From Chloroflexota bacterium (GTDB lineage: Bacteria; Chloroflexota; Limnocylindria; Limnocylindrales; CSP1-4): a DNA stretch of 29,332 bases. The translations under genes and the position numbers were made by a program. The notes beneath the pieces were generated by a model that did not search any database, was not told where the DNA came from, and was given only the letters and a program-made list of their open reading frames with translations. The stretch lies in NCBI GenBank assembly GCA_017882025.1, contig JADGQG010000001.1, positions 1-29,332 on the forward strand, written 5' to 3'. Positions 1 to 7,245 of this stretch are shown here, one piece after another; positions within the stretch are counted from its first letter, which is position 1; every line of letters starts with the position of its first letter.

Positions 1-1263
1 GGCGACTGCCGGCGCATTCTCGTTCGTGACGCGGAAATCGGCGCGGACGGCGAGGGCCCGTGCGACGAAGAGCCGGACCGCTTCGTATTGGTTGAGCGTG
101 GCCGGGTCGGCGGCGCGGATTTCGGCGGGCAGTCGGGCCAGCTCGAAGGTCGAGAGATGTCGCCGATCGGGGGGCGCCGGGAGGCCCGGCACCGCGTATT
201 CCTGTTCCCCGGAGACGTGGAGGGCGCCCCGACTGGTGGTCACGATCGTGAGGTTCGGGCAGGCGCGCAGGAGCTGTGCGGCGAGGGGAGCGGCGGCGAT
301 CACCTGCTCGAAGTTGTCGAGGACCAGCAGGCAGGTCCGGGGCGCGAAGTGCTCTATCAGCAGCTCCAGGGTCGGTCGGACGCCGCTGTCCGCCAGCCCG
401 ACGGCGCGGGCGATCGTGCCCGGCACGAGCTCCGCCTCGCGGAGCGGCTCGAGCGGGACGAACCAGACGCCGTCCGGGTAGCGGTCGGCGGCTGCGGCGG
501 CGAGCTGGAGCGCGAGGCGGGTCTTGCCGATCCCGCCGGGACCGGTGAGGGTGAGGAGGCGCGACGCGTCGAGAAGCAGGAGGGTGGCCGTGAGATCGTG
601 GTCACGGCCCACGAAAGACGTCAGCTGGGTCGGCAGGTTGTTGCGCCGCCGATCCAGCGAGCGGATCGGCGGGAAGTCGGCAGGCAGGCCGGCCGCGATG
701 AGCTGCGAGAGGCGCTCCGGCCGAAGGTCCTTGAGGCGGTGCTCGCCCAGGTCGCGGATCGTCACGTCGGCGGGGAGCACGCCGATGACCAGGGCGCGCG
801 TCGTCTCCGAAACCAGGACCTGGCCGCCGTGGCCGGCTGCGGCGATCCGGGCCGCCCGGTGGACCTCGAGCGATGTGTAGTCGCCGTCCGGGGTTGGGGT
901 CGCCTCTCCCGTGTGGAGCCCCATTCGCACGCGGATCCGCGAGTCGGAGGGCCAGGGGTGCGCGACGAGGGCTCGCTGCGCTGCGACGCACGCGGCCGCG
1001 GCCGCGCTCGCGCTCGCGAAGACGACGAAGAACGCATCGCCCTCCGTCTGGACCTCTACGCCGCCGGCAGCGTCGAAGGCGGCCCGGAGAATCCCGCGAT
1101 GCGCTTCGAGGAGCGGCTCGTAGGCGCTCCCCAGGCGGGTGATGAGGGCGGTCGAGCCCTCGATGTCCGTGAACAGGAACGTCACGGTCCCGGCGGGCAG
1201 CGGCCGCGGCGTGCCGGCAGGAGCGCCGTGACCGGGCGACGAGGGCTGGGCGGGCGGTTCCAC
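1..1263 (-). CDS. Class III adenylate/guanylate cyclase fused to NB-ARC/STAND-type ATPase (3' part outside window)
   Basis: Manual translation of the minus strand from GTG at 1263, open to the window edge: PLPAGTVTFLFTDIEGST, VQTEGDAFF, RMGLHTGE, VHRAARI, NNLPTQLTSFVGR, Walker A LTGPGGIGKTRLA, Walker B LLVLDNFEQV. Not in the ORF track. Confidence 0.92.
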   Translation of the reverse strand, partial: MEPPAQPSSPGHGAPAGTPRPLPAGTVTFLFTDIEGSTALITRLGSAYEPLLEAHRGILRAAFDAAGGVEVQTEGDAFFVVFASASAAAAACVAAQRALVAHPWPSDSRIRVRMGLHTGEATPTPDGDYTSLEVHRAARIAAAGHGGQVLVSETTRALVIGVLPADVTIRDLGEHRLKDLRPERLSQLIAAGLPADFPPIRSLDRRRNNLPTQLTSFVGRDHDLTATLLLLDASRLLTLTGPGGIGKTRLALQLAAAAADRYPDGVWFVPLEPLREAELVPGTIARAVGLADSGVRPTLELLIEHFAPRTCLLVLDNFEQVIAAAPLAAQLLRACPNLTIVTTSRGALHVSGEQEYAVPGLPAPPDRRHLSTFELARLPAEIRAADPATLNQYEAVRLFVARALAVRADFRVTNENAPAVA

Positions 1264-1270
1264 CGGCCCG

Positions 1271-1299
1271 ATGCTGCGTCAGCACGGCGCTGCCGTCAA
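1271..1299 (-). promoter_or_regulatory. Putative sigma70-type promoter of the cyclase gene (leaderless)
   Basis: Minus strand TTGACG-17 nt-CAGCAT, then 7 nt to the GTG start at 1263. Confidence 0.55.
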
Positions 1300-1543
1300 C
1301 GCCGAATCGGGGCGGGTATGCATCCCACCGTCCGTGCCGCCCGCCCGCCTCGCGCCCGGGTCGCCGGGCCACGCGGGTCGCCGGGTAGAGCGGGGTCCCT
1401 GGTCCGGGCCATCTGCATGGGACGTGACCCGAGAGACCTGGCACGGACAAAAGGACGTTCCCCGGGGGCCGGCCCAGGCGCCGGCACCGCGAACCTCCCT
1501 GGCCGCACCGTCCGGCTCGTCCCGACCGGCCGATCGACCGCGT

Positions 1544-1580
1544 GTCAGCCGTTGACGGCTAACCGTCCCTCCCGTAGCCT
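1544..1580 (+). promoter_or_regulatory. Putative sigma70-type promoter with overlapping palindromic operator (satD-lysE)
   Basis: TTGACG (1552-1557)-17 nt-TAGCCT (1575-1580), then 6 nt to GTG 1587. Imperfect palindrome GTCAGCCGTTGACGGCTAAC (1544-1563) covers the -35. Confidence 0.65.
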
Positions 1581-1586
1581 CTACCT

Positions 1587-2219
1587 GTGGACGGCATCCG
1601 GCTCGTGGCCATCGCGGAGCCGGCTGCAGGCGCAGGGTGCGCGGACGACGCAGGGCCCGTGAGCAGTGGGCGGCCCCGGATCGGGACGGGGGAGGGGACC
1701 CGTCTCCGGACCGCGGAAGGCATTTCGCGCGGCCCCGCCGCCTCGTCCCCGGCCGGCGCAGACGTGCTGGATCGCGTCATGACGTCCCGCCTCGATCGGG
1801 CCGGCGCAGCCGTTCGCTGGGGGATCGGTTCCGGCGGCGACGATGCGTCGGCCACCACGCACGCTGCGCTCGCCCTGCGGAGCGCCCGCGACCGCGGCGC
1901 TGAGCTCGGCTTCGCGACGGGCGACCCGTGGCGTGACGCGTTGCTGGTGGACCTCGGCCTGGCGCTGGCCGCGCTCCTCGATGACCTGACGCCGCGCCAG
2001 GCCGAGATCGCCTGCCTGATCCTCGTGGATGGGGCACGCCAGACGGAGGTTGCCGCCGCGCTCGGCGTGAGCCGCGCGACCGTCTCCGTGGCGGTCGCGC
2101 GGGGGCGCCTCCCCGCCATCGCCGGTGCTCGCCGGGCGATCGAGGCGCTCCTGGTGGGGCCCCCGGTGCCGCGGTCCGGACGCGGCCCCGGTGGCGCGTC
2201 CGGATCCGGGGCGCGATGA
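1587..2219 (+). CDS. SatD-family-like protein with C-terminal helix-turn-helix
   Basis: VRWGIGSG...AALALRSAR...FATGDPWRDALL...LTPRQAEIACLILVDGARQTEVAAALGVSRATVS matches the SatD C-terminal half and HTH pattern. N-terminus is divergent. Confidence 0.65.
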   Translation: MDGIRLVAIAEPAAGAGCADDAGPVSSGRPRIGTGEGTRLRTAEGISRGPAASSPAGADVLDRVMTSRLDRAGAAVRWGIGSGGDDASATTHAALALRSARDRGAELGFATGDPWRDALLVDLGLALAALLDDLTPRQAEIACLILVDGARQTEVAAALGVSRATVSVAVARGRLPAIAGARRAIEALLVGPPVPRSGRGPGGASGSGAR

Positions 2220-2875
2220 TCGGCGCGCTCCTCGCCGGGTTCGCCGCGGGCTACGGCATCGCGATCCCGGTCGGTGCGGTCGCCGTGCTCATCGTGGAGA
2301 CCGGGATTCGGTCCGGGTTTCGCGCCGCCGCGGCCGCCGGGGCCGGCGCCGCCTCCGCCGACGGGATCTATGCAGCCATCGCGGCAATCTTCGGCGCCGT
2401 GCTCGCCGGCGTGCTGACACCCTGGCAGGTGCCGCTTCGAGCGGCGGCGGTCCTCGTGCTCGTGGGGCTCGCGCTGCGCGGCTTCCGGTCGGTGGCTCGC
2501 GATGCCGAGCGGGCGCGTGTGCGGGAGCCGGCGGCCCCGGGTCCGCCCGGCCCGGAGCACGCCGGAGGGGCCACGCGATCACCTCGACGGACCTACGCGG
2601 CCTTCCTCGGGCTCACGCTCTTGAACCCGATGACGATCACCTACTTCGCCGCGCTCATCCTTGGTCTCGGGGGAACCGGGACGGAGCCGGCCGAGAAGAT
2701 GGCGTTCGTGGTCGGCGCGTTCATCGCCTCCCTCTCGTGGCAGACGCTGATCGCGGCCGCCGGTGCGGCGCTCCACCGGCGCCTTGGACCACCGATGCGC
2801 CTCGCCGTCGGCGTCACTGGGAACGTCATCGTGCTGGCCTTCGCGGCCGTCATCGCGTCCGGCCGCGCCGGGTAG
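2216..2875 (+). CDS. LysE/RhtB family amino acid exporter
   Basis: GIAIPVGAVAVLIVETGIRSGFRAAAAAGAGAASADGIYA and LTLLNPMTITYF motifs; hydrophobic; ATGA overlap with the upstream gene. Confidence 0.9.
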   Translation: MIGALLAGFAAGYGIAIPVGAVAVLIVETGIRSGFRAAAAAGAGAASADGIYAAIAAIFGAVLAGVLTPWQVPLRAAAVLVLVGLALRGFRSVARDAERARVREPAAPGPPGPEHAGGATRSPRRTYAAFLGLTLLNPMTITYFAALILGLGGTGTEPAEKMAFVVGAFIASLSWQTLIAAAGAALHRRLGPPMRLAVGVTGNVIVLAFAAVIASGRAG

Positions 2876-2910
2876 GCACGCGCCCGGCACGCGCCCGGCG
2901 GGCGACCTCG

Positions 2911-4368
2911 TCAGGGTGCGGGCGGGACCCGGCCCGGAAGCGTCACGCTGAAGCAGGTGCGACCCGGCGCGGACGCCACCTCGATCCGGCCGGCATGCCG
3001 GTCCACGATGGACTGGACGATGTGGAGCCCCAGGCCACTCCCCGCCCCGACGTCCTTGGTCGTGAAGAAGGGCTCGAAGATCCGGGCGCGGACATCCTCT
3101 GGAATCCCGGACCCCGAGTCGCACACCTCGACCCTGACGCCCGGAGCGACGGCCGGCCCGGACCCCGGCAGTCGCTGGGCGTCGGCCTGCGGATCACGCC
3201 GGACGGTGATCTCGAGGATGCCACGTCCGCGCATCGCGTCCGCCGCATTGACGATCAGGTTCGTCCAGACCTGGTTGAGCTCGCTGCCGAAGGCTTCGAT
3301 GCGCGGCCGTCCGGCCGGGTAGGTGCGGCGGACCTCGATCCCCGCCTTCAGGCGTGGGCGCAACATCACGAGCGTGCTCTCGATCCCGGCGATCACGTCC
3401 ACCTCGCCGACCGGCGCCCGATCCAGGTAGCTGTACTCCCGGACGGATGCGACGATCTCCCCGATCCGTTCTCCCGCGGCCCCGATCTCGGCCAGGAGCT
3501 GGCGCCCGAGCGCTCCCGCGGCAAGCCAGGCGAGCACGACGTGCCGGGCTTCGTCGCTCTCGAACGGCGCGAGCAGGTCGTCGAGCTGGTTGCCGTCCCA
3601 GCCGAACGCGACGAGCGTTGCCGCCGGCTCCGCCGGCCTCGCGATGCCAAGCCGGTCGAGCAGCGCGACCATCGCGTCCTCGCGGTCGGCGGCGTCGACC
3701 GGGTCCAGGATCGGGGGCGTCGCGGCCCTGCGGTCCAGCTCGTCGCGCAACGCAGCGGCCACCTCGCGGGCCACGCCGTCCGGGTCCAGGTCGTCGGGTC
3801 CGAGCGCCCCGAGGGCGCCGGCTGCGCGATCCCATTCGCCCGCGAGCGTCGTCAGGCGGCCGACGGTGCTTCGGATTGCGGCCGCCGGGTTGTTCAGCTC
3901 GTGGGCGAGCCCAGCCGCGAGCGTTCCGAGCGCCGCAAGCTTCTCGCGCTCGCGGAGAAGCGACTCCGTGGCCCGGAGGCGGCCCGCGATGGTGCGCAGG
4001 AGCGCCAGCGCGAGCTCGGGCCGTCGACCGAGCACGTCCAGGAGCGCGTCGCGGCGCAGGCGAAGGAGCGTGGCGGGGCCGACGGCGCGGACCGTGGCCG
4101 ATCGGGGCCGGCCTTCCAGGACGGCCAGCTCTCCCTGGACCTCGCCCGGACCAACGACCGCCAGGGGGATGTCCGCGTTGCCGGAGCGCTTCGAGACCGC
4201 GAGCTCGCCGGTGAGCACGACAAAGAGCGCATCCCCAGCCTCACCCTCGCGGAGGAGGATCGTGCCCGGCGCCAGCTCCACGTTCTCGGCGACGGCGGCA
4301 AGCCGCCCGAGCTCGGAGTCGTCGAGCCCCGCAAGGAGCGGGATGCGGCGGAGCGGCGCGAGGTCCAC
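2911..4368 (-). CDS. Cytoplasmic sensor histidine kinase with N-terminal cyclic nucleotide-binding domain
   Basis: cNMP cassette GELAVLEGRPRSATVRA; H-box LAHELNNPAAAI; N-box ELNQVWTNLIVNAADAM; DSGSGIP; IFEPFFTTK; GSGLGL. GTG start at 4368, 8 nt past the upstream stop, with GAGG before it (track start 4791 is over-extended). Confidence 0.93.
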   Translation of the reverse strand: MDLAPLRRIPLLAGLDDSELGRLAAVAENVELAPGTILLREGEAGDALFVVLTGELAVSKRSGNADIPLAVVGPGEVQGELAVLEGRPRSATVRAVGPATLLRLRRDALLDVLGRRPELALALLRTIAGRLRATESLLREREKLAALGTLAAGLAHELNNPAAAIRSTVGRLTTLAGEWDRAAGALGALGPDDLDPDGVAREVAAALRDELDRRAATPPILDPVDAADREDAMVALLDRLGIARPAEPAATLVAFGWDGNQLDDLLAPFESDEARHVVLAWLAAGALGRQLLAEIGAAGERIGEIVASVREYSYLDRAPVGEVDVIAGIESTLVMLRPRLKAGIEVRRTYPAGRPRIEAFGSELNQVWTNLIVNAADAMRGRGILEITVRRDPQADAQRLPGSGPAVAPGVRVEVCDSGSGIPEDVRARIFEPFFTTKDVGAGSGLGLHIVQSIVDRHAGRIEVASAPGRTCFSVTLPGRVPPAP

Positions 4369-4375
4369 CAGCGCC

Positions 4376-6031
4376 TCAGAGGCCGGCGAGGTGCTGATGT
4401 ACGAACTGGACGGCCATCGCGCCTTCGCCGACGCCCGATGCGATCCGCTTGACGGAGCGAGCCCGGACGTCGCCGGCCGCGAAGATCCCGGACACGTTCG
4501 TCTCGAGCAGGAACGGCTCGCGGGCAAGCGGCCAGCCGGGCACGTGGCCGTCGACCCGCGAGAGTGCCGGCCCCGTGACGATGAAGCCGGCGCCGTCCCG
4601 CTCCACCACGCCGTCGAGCCAGTCCGTGCGCGGGAGCGCACCGACAAACAGGAAGAGCGCCTGCATCGGCACGTCGGTCGTCCCAGCCGCGTCGGCGATC
4701 GTGATCGCTTCGAGCTCGTCGGTCCCCCGCACCGCGGCGACGTTCGCGTTGAGCCGCACCTGAATCGTGGGACGTGCCGCGATCTGGTCAACGAGGTACT
4801 GGCTCATGCCAGCCTCCAGGCGCCCTCCGCGGACCACGAGCGTCACCTGGCGGGCGAAGGCGGCCAGGTAGACCGCGGCCTGGCCGGCCGAGTTCCCGCC
4901 ACCGACGACGGCCACGTCGTGGTCGCGGAAGGCAAGCGCCTCGGTGATCGCGGCACCGTAGAAGACGCCGAGGCCGATGAGCGCGTCCACCCCCGGCGCC
5001 TCCAGCCGGCGGTACTGCACGCCCATTGCCAGGATCAGCGCCTGGCAGCTCAGCTCGCTTCCGTCTCCCAGCGTGACGAAGCAGTACGGGTCCTCGCGCC
5101 GGATGCGCTGGACCTCCTGCGGCGTGAGGATCTCCGCCCCGAGACGGGTCGCCTGGGCAACCGCCCGGCGGGCGAGGTCCGCCCCGGTGAGCCCGGCGGG
5201 GAAGCCGAGGTAGTTCTCGATCCGCGAGGTCGTGCCGGCTTGCCCACCCGGCGCCTCGCGTTCCAGGAGCAGGGTCCGGAGCCCCTCGGAGGCACCGTAG
5301 ACCGCCGCCGCGAGACCGGCCGGGCCTCCGCCGATGATGACGAGGTCGTAGAACGGAAGGACTGCGCGGGTCCGCAGACCCACCTTCTCGGCGATCTGCA
5401 CGTTGGTCGGGGCCCGCAGGTGACTCCCGTCCGGGAAGACGAGGAGCGGATCGCGCCCGGGGTCGATGCCCGCGCTCGCAACGAGGCGGGCCGCTTCCGG
5501 GTCCGTTTCGACATCCACCCAGCGATAGGGAACCTGGTTGCGGGCGAGGTAGTCCTTGATCTCGTGGGCCCGCGCGGACCAGCGATGGCCCACCAGCCGG
5601 ATCCCTTCGAACGGCGGAATCCAGCCGGCGCGCCAATCGTCCAGGAGCTCTTCGAGGGCGGGGAAGAGCCGTTCCTCGGGTGGGTCCCATGGCTTGAGGA
5701 GGTACTGGTCCAGCCCGATCTCGTTGATCGCCCGGATCGCGACATCGGTGTCCGCGTAGGCCGTCAGCAGCACCCGCTTCGCCGCCGGCAGCAGGGTCAG
5801 GGTTGCCCCCAGCAGCTCGACGCCGCTCATCCCGGGCATGCGTTGATCAACCACGAGCAGCGCGATCGGCGTGCCGCGCAGGGTCAGTCGCCGGATGGCA
5901 TCCAGGGCGTCTGCGCCGGAGCCGGACGCCACGATCCGGTAGTCGCCGCCGAACCGACCCCGGACCTCGCGCCCCACGGCGCGCAGGACCTGGGGGTCGT
6001 CGTCAACGACCAGGATGACCGGGTTCGCCAT
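4376..6031 (-). CDS. Response regulator receiver + glutaredoxin-like + thioredoxin-reductase-like FAD oxidoreductase fusion
   Basis: REC: VVDDD, VVDQRMPGMSG, LLTAY, LLKPW. FAD: IIGGGPAGL, IFAAGDVR. NAD(P): VVGGGNSAGQAA. GGAGG RBS upstream. Confidence 0.93.
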   Translation of the reverse strand: MANPVILVVDDDPQVLRAVGREVRGRFGGDYRIVASGSGADALDAIRRLTLRGTPIALLVVDQRMPGMSGVELLGATLTLLPAAKRVLLTAYADTDVAIRAINEIGLDQYLLKPWDPPEERLFPALEELLDDWRAGWIPPFEGIRLVGHRWSARAHEIKDYLARNQVPYRWVDVETDPEAARLVASAGIDPGRDPLLVFPDGSHLRAPTNVQIAEKVGLRTRAVLPFYDLVIIGGGPAGLAAAVYGASEGLRTLLLEREAPGGQAGTTSRIENYLGFPAGLTGADLARRAVAQATRLGAEILTPQEVQRIRREDPYCFVTLGDGSELSCQALILAMGVQYRRLEAPGVDALIGLGVFYGAAITEALAFRDHDVAVVGGGNSAGQAAVYLAAFARQVTLVVRGGRLEAGMSQYLVDQIAARPTIQVRLNANVAAVRGTDELEAITIADAAGTTDVPMQALFLFVGALPRTDWLDGVVERDGAGFIVTGPALSRVDGHVPGWPLAREPFLLETNVSGIFAAGDVRARSVKRIASGVGEGAMAVQFVHQHLAGL

Positions 6032-6212
6032 CGCGGGCGTGCCTCCGTCGCGCCCGCTGAGCGCCGTCCGGCCATGCCGCAGGACGCGCCCTTGTGGGAT
6101 CGCGCCTGCATGCTAGTCGACAACGCCGTTCCCGACGAGAGCGGGGTGCCTGCACCTCAAGGGCGACCGGTCAGGCCGCGAGCCGCGTCGCGAGTGCGCG
6201 GATCGTCCCGGC

Positions 6213-6788
6213 TCAGGACTTTGGGTCCTCGCGGAGCCGGGCGAACATCACGGCGTCCACCAGCTCGCCGCGGAACGGCAGGTAGCCGCGAAGGACGCCC
6301 TCCCGCGCGAATCCCGCCCGAAGCGCGACGCGGCCGGATGCCTCGTTGCCCACCAGGGTCAGGAGCTCCATCCGCACGAGTCTCGGCTCGACCTTGAACG
6401 CCCAGCGGACGACGAGCCGGACGGCGCGGGTCGCCGCGCCGCGCCCGCGCGCCTCCGGGCTCAACCAGTAGCCGACCGCGGCCTTGCCGGGTTCATCCGG
6501 CCGCCGGTGGATGCCGATCGTGCCCACGAGCGTTCGGCTCGCCGCATCAACGATCACGAACGTCGGCTCGCGGCCCGTGGACCATGCCTCGGCGGCGAAG
6601 GCCACGAACGCTCTCGCGTCCTCGAGGCGATAGGGGGTCGGGACGGGTATCCAGCGCGCGATCTCCGGGTCGCGACACGCCGCGGCGATCGCCGGCGCGT
6701 CCGCGTCCCGCGGGAGGCGCAGGACCACCGTCCCGTCGGTGAGTGGCGGATCCGGCGGGGGGAACGGGCGGAACAGCGGGACGGTCAT
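6213..6788 (-). CDS. GNAT N-acetyltransferase, RimJ/RimL family
   Basis: VGYWLSPEARGRGAATRAVRL, NEASGRVALRAGFAREGVLR. Confidence 0.92.
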   Translation of the reverse strand: MTVPLFRPFPPPDPPLTDGTVVLRLPRDADAPAIAAACRDPEIARWIPVPTPYRLEDARAFVAFAAEAWSTGREPTFVIVDAASRTLVGTIGIHRRPDEPGKAAVGYWLSPEARGRGAATRAVRLVVRWAFKVEPRLVRMELLTLVGNEASGRVALRAGFAREGVLRGYLPFRGELVDAVMFARLREDPKS

Positions 6789-6947
6789 GCTCCCCAGACT
6801 CTACGGCGCGAGAGATCGCTCGGTGTGGCCCGGGTGGCGGCGCGCCCGTCGCACCGGGAGGCTCGCCATGCCGGATCGCCTGCATGCCGTGGATTTGATT
6901 CGCCGGTATCGACCTGCAGAAGATGCCGTGGGCACGGGGTCCGGACC

Positions 6948-7245
6948 GAGCACCTGCGAATCCCGGAGGACGACGGCGTCCGCCTGGCGGACCGAGCGCG
7001 ACGGGGTGGTCGGGACGCGCGCTACCGGGTGACGGTGGCGGACGGGTTCTCGGACCGCCGAGCCGTCGGGACGATCCGCCACCGGCTGGCGTACCCGCAC
7101 GGCCCCGAGGTCGTCGCCGATGCCGGCCTGACGCGACTGGGACCGGGACGAGCTCCCGATTCGCGTGACCCTGGCGGTCACCGAGGGTGCCGGGCCGGTC
7201 TTCGATCGGACCTGGGAGCTGCCCGTGCCGCGCGATCTCCTGTGA
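6948..7245 (+). pseudogene. Frameshifted remnant resembling the C-terminus of a CocE/NonD-family hydrolase
   Basis: Joining two frames at about 7134 gives ARYRVTVADGFSDRRAVGTIRHRLAYPHGPEVVADAGLT/DWDRDELPIRVTLAVTEGAGPVFDRTWELPVPRDLL*, similar to the VFxRxWxxxIPRDLL terminus. No catalytic domain upstream. Confidence 0.45.

Follow-up and report, generated by a model that had tools for sequence, protein, structure and literature searches.

Does a cyclic nucleotide control a redox enzyme by way of a histidine kinase and a response regulator in some bacteria? This question is raised by two adjacent genes at positions 2911-6031 of contig JADGQG010000001.1 from a Chloroflexota bacterium. The window, that is, the whole stretch of DNA analysed, is this entire 29.3-kb contig (29,332 nucleotides) of a 1.95-Mb metagenome-assembled genome (completeness 79%, G+C about 73%). 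The named homologs nearest to the pair are from 'Candidatus Limnocylindrales' (Chloroflexota), and DNA near-identical to the window is present in soil, peat and permafrost metagenomes. In our reading, to which we give a probability of roughly 55%, the two genes encode a cognate two-component pair within a small cyclic-nucleotide cassette, and phosphorylation switches a cysteine-less flavoprotein. The pair has the following features, in the order of transcription.

4376-6031, minus strand: response regulator of 551 amino acids with a receiver, a cysteine-less glutaredoxin-like domain and a thioredoxin-reductase-like FAD/NAD(P)H module; ATG start, TGA stop at 4378-4376
5675-6016, minus strand: receiver (REC), residues 6-119; Pfam PF00072 Response_reg, E 1.4e-13
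5381-5602, minus strand: glutaredoxin/mycoredoxin-like domain, residues about 144-217; the CxxC position reads W-S-A-R-A-H
4391-5350, minus strand: thioredoxin-reductase-like module, residues 228-547; GxGxxG, GGQ, GGGNSA and GD are kept and CxxC is replaced by Y-G-A-A-I-T-E-A (358-365)
4369-4375, minus strand: 7-nt spacer between the regulator stop and the kinase GTG; a GAGG overlaps the stop codon, 5 nt upstream of the GTG at 4368
2911-4368, minus strand: soluble histidine kinase of 485 amino acids with a cyclic-nucleotide-binding (CNB) domain, a split dimerisation and histidine-phosphotransfer (DHp) domain and a catalytic ATPase domain; GTG start at 4368
4027-4281, minus strand: CNB domain, residues 30-114; Pfam cNMP_binding (PF00027), 71.4 bits against a cut-off of 27.5
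3556-3807, minus strand: family-specific insert, residues 188-271 (about 85), helical; the secondary structure of the model puts it at the DHp hairpin tip, after the H156 helix and before DHp helix 2
2935-3282, minus strand: HATPase_c catalytic domain, residues 363-478; E 1.1e-20, with N, G1, F and G2 boxes

A kinase and a regulator encoded side by side

Both genes are on the minus strand, with the regulator first and the kinase after a gap of 7 nt. The tightly coupled two-gene unit of a preliminary description of this DNA is thus borne out, with exact coordinates. The longest open reading frame (ORF) covers 2911-4791, but a kinase start at 4791 was rejected as an overlap artefact; database proteins 96% identical to the kinase also have 485 amino acids. 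Contigs from two soil metatranscriptome libraries overlap parts of the kinase and regulator genes and of the neighbouring acetyltransferase and cyclase genes described below, with DNA carry-over as a possible source. No contig from the two libraries spans the junction of regulator and kinase, so these contigs do not prove co-transcription. A scan of positions 1200-7000 for promoters and terminators gave nothing exceeding the shuffled expectation.

The motifs needed for phosphotransfer are present on both sides. In the kinase, the H-box HELNNP contains H156 and the HExxN motif. H156, N159, N160 and P161 are invariant in 35 aligned orthologous kinases, as are N365/N374, G419, F434 and G441-G447 of the ATPase domain. 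Pfam HisKA covers only profile positions 2-29 of the kinase DHp. In the model of the kinase (pLDDT 87.5), an unbroken helix of residues 117-187, which bears H156, carries the C-helix of the CNB domain into DHp helix 1 and is followed by the four-helix insert, DHp helix 2 and the ATPase domain. The insert, with no match to a known domain, contains a block, SDRED..L..WL..HG, that is conserved in the 35 orthologs. In the regulator, the receiver quintet is intact, with D10, D11, D62 (the phospho-acceptor), T90 and K113, and all kinase-linked homologs sampled keep it. The AlphaFold model of the regulator has a pLDDT of 95.1 and a pTM of 0.92.

We examined how often the two genes stand together in 80 loci, taken from contigs of one genome per species. 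These were the best 80 of 222 confirmed loci and, as relatives, they are not independent. The neighbouring ORFs were scored with the domains of the window proteins. Among the 41 loci with an intact receiver quintet (DD/D/T/K), 38 had a kinase of the same family adjacent and on the same strand, and two of the other three were at contig edges. These counts contradict rare co-occurrence of the two genes. The partner kinase is directly downstream of the regulator, or directly upstream in Bacteroidota and some others. The partner kinases share the split DHp and match the window kinase at E 1e-40 to 1e-71. The paired loci span at least eight phyla (Chloroflexota, Cyanobacteriota, Acidobacteriota, Pseudomonadota, Gemmatimonadota, Bacteroidota, Actinomycetota and Verrucomicrobiota). 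Chance juxtaposition of two genes is ruled out by an adjacency kept across phyla. On the intact motifs and this conserved adjacency, we infer that kinase and regulator form a cognate two-component pair.

An adjacent kinase was found in none of the 7 loci with T90V/I or an otherwise degenerate receiver and in none of the 21 loci where a CNB domain is fused to the flavoprotein. The receiver-flavoproteins of L042-L044, L063, L064, L066 and L067 form a clade (99% support) in which T90 is replaced by V or I, some of them with a degenerate acidic pocket. The T90V/I proteins may be orphan or pseudo-receiver forms. Of 10 partner kinases in which a phmmer search with the window CNB had missed this domain, 9 have it by Pfam. 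Two partner kinases with the same core have no CNB domain (L031:4449-5867 and L013:4383-5996). The N-terminus of the former is receiver-like and that of the latter has no match to a known domain.

The output module and its relatives

In the regulator, Pfam Pyr_redox_2 matched residues 228-537 (E 3.9e-34). A search of the PDB with the regulator gave thioredoxin reductases at up to E 7e-47 (7jyp). Ferredoxin-NADP reductases of the thioredoxin-reductase type, considered as the closest family, were rejected with E 1e-17 to 1e-9 as compared with 1e-47. A structural search of Swiss-Prot returned only thioredoxin reductase and AhpF, and no Swiss-Prot or PDB entry had the whole architecture. The modelled module fits the flavin-reducing (FR) conformers of thioredoxin reductases best, with a root-mean-square deviation of 2.0-2.5 Å, whereas the deviation from the flavin-oxidising (FO) conformers is about 7.5 Å. 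The cofactor-binding residues G234, G236, G239, G262-G263-Q264, N273, G377, N380 and G520-D521 are invariant in 92 sequences with identities down to 34%.

The cysteines of a thioredoxin reductase are missing from this fold. Where solved thioredoxin reductases have CAAC or CATC, the window protein has G-A-A-I-T, and a replacement motif YG[AST]xxxEA occupies the CxxC position in 150 family representatives, aligned by MAFFT, and in 75 sampled loci. The glutaredoxin-like domain has, family-wide, RWSxxxHE at its former CxxC, where thiol-active relatives have CPDC. The window protein contains two cysteines, and no position of the family consensus has a conserved one. The regulator scored 231.5 bits with TIGR01292, below the 343.45-bit cut-off of the thioredoxin-disulfide reductase equivalog. 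The glutaredoxin-like domain scored 32 bits with TIGR02200 (E 1.2e-7), below the cut-off of 89.5 bits for a glutaredoxin. In the genome, at its completeness of 79%, no thioredoxin reductase exceeded the TIGR01292 cut-off; the best match was the window gene itself.

The output therefore has the fold of a thioredoxin reductase, and its motifs identify it as a putative cysteine-less flavoprotein and not as a thioredoxin reductase. The module appears to derive from a fusion of glutaredoxin and thioredoxin reductase, with both disulfides gone and every cofactor-binding signature retained. The lost disulfides and the kept cofactor signatures suggest that it most likely oxidises NAD(P)H and passes the flavin electrons to a non-disulfide acceptor, for which O2, a quinone, a metal or a small redox protein are examples. 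The preliminary description had called the regulator an intact receiver (D62, T, K) fused to an FAD/NAD(P) oxidoreductase. Receiver and fold stand; the name of the output needs amending for the loss of the redox disulfide of thioredoxin reductase. The cysteine-less glutaredoxin-like domain (residues about 144-217), which lies between receiver and flavoprotein, is a feature beyond that description.

Relatives of the regulator are numerous, with more than 8000 clusters at 90% identity and many full-length representatives at 50% identity (38-58% identical to the window protein). They occur in Chloroflexota, Actinomycetota (including Streptomyces, Nocardia and Mycolicibacterium), Acidobacteriota, Bacteroidota, Gemmatimonadota, Cyanobacteriota, Verrucomicrobiota and Pseudomonadota. 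In all 10 family representatives that begin with something other than a receiver, a Pfam cNMP_binding domain is joined directly to the same glutaredoxin-like/thioredoxin-reductase-like module. In a maximum-likelihood tree of the family, these CNB-fused forms are nested at no fewer than five places among the receiver forms. A fused CNB domain and a receiver with a CNB-kinase therefore appear to have been repeatedly interchangeable as the means of controlling the module.

Four fusions of glutaredoxin and thioredoxin reductase (L061, L062, L071 and L077) have intact CPDC and CATC and no sensor domain. A branch with 100% support separates them from all 75 cysteine-less, sensor-linked proteins. On the assumption that this branch holds the root, a single loss of both disulfides would have taken place at the origin of the sensor-linked clade.

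Probable cyclic-nucleotide input and neighbouring genes

The CNB domain of the window kinase has the phosphate-binding cassette of the PKA/CAP type, G79-E80 ... R89-S90-A91 (GELAVLEGRPRSAT), and its closest matches in the PDB are PKA regulatory subunits in the cAMP-bound state (E 1e-27 to 1e-22). All kinase relatives with at least 81% identity keep GELAVLEGRPR[ST]AT, and the Glu and Arg of the cassette persist in Chloroflexota relatives down to about 50% identity. No transmembrane helix is predicted, since the highest 19-residue Kyte-Doolittle mean of the kinase is only 1.46. Hydropathy, the Pfam match and the cassette residues thus agree with the earlier view of a soluble kinase with an intact phosphate-binding cassette for cyclic nucleoside monophosphates (cNMPs).

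Orthologous kinases from Actinomycetota, Bacteroidota, Acidobacteriota, Gemmatimonadota and Pseudomonadota have clade-conserved motifs (for example, G-x-L-P-F-S-R and GVYxGA) in place of this Glu and Arg. Because the kinases of most other phyla lack these two cNMP-contact residues, gating by cNMP, as judged from the contact residues, is well supported for this lineage and not for the whole family. Outside the lineage of the window, the CNB fold of the kinases probably binds another ligand, and family-wide the ligand of the fold may be other than a cNMP.

The genome has genes for 5 CNB proteins and for 6 cyclase domains, and a cyclase gene is a neighbour of the pair. Two genes that flank the pair are the following.

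1-1263, minus strand: gene for a class III cyclase with a STAND ATPase, cut by the contig end; PF00211 E 1.5e-12; full length about 910-934 amino acids in relatives
6213-6788, minus strand: GNAT acetyltransferase (RimJ/RimL-type, Acetyltransf_3), 181 nt upstream of the regulator

The cyclase gene shares the strand of the kinase and follows it at a distance of 1.6 kb. Its position is conserved in some relatives. The arrangement is identical in a relative with an 81%-identical kinase, where the cyclase has 934 amino acids. In two more distant relatives, the cyclase directly follows the kinase, with a gap of 92 nt in one and an overlap of 4 nt in the other. The closest solved structure to the window cyclase is the Ma1120 adenylyl cyclase, and in the alignment to it both metal-binding Asp residues are kept. 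Positions 1587-2875 hold two genes on the opposite strand, encoding a helix-turn-helix (HTH) protein similar to sigma-70 region 4 and a LysE exporter. Both are also found in the relative with the 81%-identical kinase and are absent from the two more distant ones.

The GNAT is orthologous to residues 1-182 of P0290, a fused GNAT-CNB-kinase, with 65% identity (E 2e-65). Such fusions of GNAT, CNB domain and histidine kinase occur in about 45 Chloroflexota relatives at about 60% identity (P0287-P0334; L084:6001-8061). Since these relatives carry GNAT as the N-terminal part of the CNB-kinase, the separate GNAT here is predicted to be functionally linked to the module. One CNB domain could control both the acetyltransferase and the kinase in the three-part fusions. 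The unit in the window would then be larger than two genes, with GNAT and cyclase as putative members.

The proposal that a cNMP controls a redox enzyme is supported at this locus by the cassette, by the CNB-flavoprotein fusions and by the synteny with a cyclase, but it should not be extended to the whole family.

Mechanism, alternatives and known systems

From these observations the following sequence of events can be proposed. The class III cyclase-STAND protein nearby would make cAMP, or possibly cGMP. The nucleotide would bind the PKA-like CNB domain of the soluble kinase, whose contact residues are intact. The signal would pass along the predicted continuous helix 117-187 and, with H156 on this helix, would shift the balance of kinase and phosphatase activity. 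The phosphoryl group would then move to D62 of the receiver, as the intact motifs and the conserved adjacency suggest. The phosphorylated receiver would switch the attached FAD/NAD(P)H module toward its non-disulfide acceptor. In the sister proteins the same module would be switched directly by a fused CNB-like domain, and the RimJ/RimL-type GNAT would be a further member of the cassette in this lineage. As far as it can be computed from motifs, architecture, conservation and synteny, the preliminary hypothesis holds throughout for this locus.

The motifs, the architecture, the conservation and the synteny are what the sequences show; that a ligand binds, that phosphate is transferred, and in which direction and by what chemistry the output responds are deduced. 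Several observations weigh against this mechanism. On the input side, both the Glu and the Arg of the cassette are present in only 3 of the 35 aligned orthologous kinases, and the CNB domains fused to the flavoprotein retain Gly-Glu without the phosphate-binding Arg. The HTH and LysE genes separate the window cyclase from the kinase, and one related Chloroflexota locus has no cyclase nearby. The cyclase itself has Gln in place of the substrate-specifying Lys and His in place of the transition-state Asn; because of these two replacements its product might be either cAMP or cGMP. On the output side, the motif for the 2'-phosphate of NADPH, HRR..K, reads VRG..E in the window protein. This makes the reductant uncertain, and NADH may serve. 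All-against-all clustering of the ORFs of the 38 paired loci recovered only the kinase, the regulator and their shadow frames as recurrent. No third gene is conserved across phyla, nor is a gene for an acceptor or substrate conserved beside the pair. The distribution is also uneven. A homolog of the regulator was present in 33 of 201 sampled genomes of the phylum and is patchy within it; all 12 genomes of one sister family have the gene, but it was found in none of 7 further genomes from the family to which the window belongs, one of them 95% complete and from the same genus. This pattern suggests that the DNA is accessory or was transferred, or perhaps that the contig was mis-binned.

The weakness on the input side leads to one alternative, in which the CNB fold of the kinase senses a ligand other than cAMP or cGMP, or is a structural or dimerisation module, and the two-component pair responds to some other input. 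Many CNB folds of the CRP/FNR type do bind other ligands. The 32 aligned kinases that lack Glu, Arg or both have other clade-conserved motifs instead, and the missing Arg of the flavoprotein-fused CNB domains fits the same explanation. The window CNB, however, has the full PKA/CAP cassette and matches cAMP-bound PKA regulatory subunits best. Selection has kept the cassette in all close relatives. The cyclase gene shows synteny with that of the kinase, and in one relative the two are coupled in translation. We consider a different input unlikely for this locus.

Two other explanations concern the output. The flavoprotein module might be a sensor of redox or NAD(P)H state, or a pseudoenzyme, that acts through conformational change or contacts and may integrate redox state with phosphorylation. 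Thioredoxin reductase folds rotate their domains between the FO and FR states, a possible switch, and the model here is in the FR state. The joint loss of both redox disulfides, with no conserved cysteine left, and the lack of a conserved acceptor gene nearby would also be explained. However, the FAD and NAD(P)H signatures are invariant in the 92 diverse members, the CxxC region has a conserved Tyr358 and Glu364 and is not decayed sequence, and a CNB-fused homolog is reported to have NAD(P)H:DTNB activity (PMC6544261). The odds of a role without catalysis are, in our judgement, low. The switched enzyme could instead be a genuine thioredoxin reductase regulated by phosphorylation, as most databases name it. 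The source annotations of homologs read 'thioredoxin reductase (NADPH)', thioredoxin and insulin reduction has been reported for the CNB-fused homolog (PMC6544261), and sco7298 is named trxB3 and is induced by polysulfide (PMC9952706). This explanation is very improbable in view of the score of 231 against 343 bits with TIGR01292, the absence of CxxC from the window protein and all 75 sensor-linked homologs, the presence of only two cysteines in the former and none in the consensus, and the separate, fully supported clade of the true CPDC/CATC fusions. We therefore prefer the reading of a cognate pair in which phosphorylation switches a cysteine-less flavoprotein.

Almost all two-component systems that have been studied act through DNA binding or through enzymes of c-di-GMP or chemotaxis, and what is known of cAMP signalling in bacteria mostly concerns CRP. 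In the present pair, a phosphorelay appears to connect a second messenger with a redox cofactor. We tentatively extend this to the family: the receiver-gated and CNB-gated proteins might be one cross-phylum family of allosterically switched, cysteine-free flavoenzymes with non-disulfide chemistry, such as regulated NAD(P)H oxidation that yields a reactive-oxygen or reduced-acceptor signal. The cassette of Limnocylindria-like Chloroflexota would then couple cAMP or cGMP to electron transfer, and possibly to acetylation, without a transcription factor. The repeated exchange of receiver and CNB domain is a natural experiment that points to the module as the regulated effector. Both disulfide centres appear to have disappeared at the origin of the sensor-linked clade, with the cofactor sites kept invariant, so that new chemistry is conceivable. 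The substrate of the module could reveal such chemistry for the thioredoxin-reductase fold and correct thousands of 'thioredoxin reductase' annotations. Tractable hosts of the family exist, for example S. coelicolor with SCO7297/7298.

Regulators that combine a receiver with TrxB have been catalogued as a class with enzymatic output (PMC9739842; PMC5847659), and the S. coelicolor pair SCO7297 (kinase)/SCO7298 is listed under the 'TrxB' type (PMC9739842). In a table of a cyanobacterial census, the sole cNMP_binding kinase and the sole TrxB regulator stand in one genome column (PMC9953108). The literature that we found consists of such catalogue entries, with no functional study of the pair and nothing relevant on cAMP and autophosphorylation in CNB histidine kinases, and a study that we missed may still exist. 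The window regulator belongs to the TrxB-type class, with its N-terminal receiver, TrxB-like domain and adjacent kinase gene. Members of this class share the receiver and the thioredoxin-reductase-like domain next to a classic histidine kinase, and those of two Streptomyces loci (L016 and L021) are in the window family. The censuses consulted (P2CS/P2RP, Galperin) are silent on the missing CxxC, the glutaredoxin-like domain, the CNB input and the linkage to cyclase and GNAT.

TrxB itself (TIGR01292) has the two-Rossmann fold and the GxGxxG, GGQ, GGGNSA and GD motifs in common with the window module. The window protein differs in having no CxxC, VRG for HRR, a score below the cut-off, and a receiver and cysteine-less glutaredoxin-like domain at its N-terminus. 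AhpF, which gave the top full-length structural matches, also has a thioredoxin-fold domain N-terminal to a thioredoxin-reductase-like module. Among thiol-active proteins, the glutaredoxin-thioredoxin reductase fusions with CPDC and CATC stand closest to the window family. AhpF and these fusions relay electrons via two disulfide centres, whereas the window protein has neither and has a signalling domain in addition.

The CNB-fused sister proteins have a characterised counterpart by description in ATII-TrxR (Cupriavidus-like, 552 amino acids), which combines a CNB and a TrxB-like domain. The purified protein contained FAD and, given DTNB as acceptor, oxidised both NADPH and NADH; cyclic nucleotides were not part of the assays (PMC6544261). 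Its architecture and its proposed cysteine pairs of a non-CxxC type, and not a sequence alignment, suggest that it belongs to the cysteine-less clade. In ATII-TrxR the fused CNB domain would sense directly, whereas the window module would be reached via kinase and receiver.

For the input domain, PKA regulatory subunits (RI-alpha at E 1e-22) and CRP share the Gly-Glu and Arg-Ser-Ala cassette. The GNAT-CNB-kinase fusions recall the mycobacterial CNB-GNAT acetyltransferase Rv0998, an enzyme of cAMP-controlled acetylation. In contrast to PKA, CRP and Rv0998, the effector of the CNB domain here is a histidine kinase, and the GNAT is of the RimJ/RimL type and either N-terminal to the CNB domain or encoded by a separate gene.

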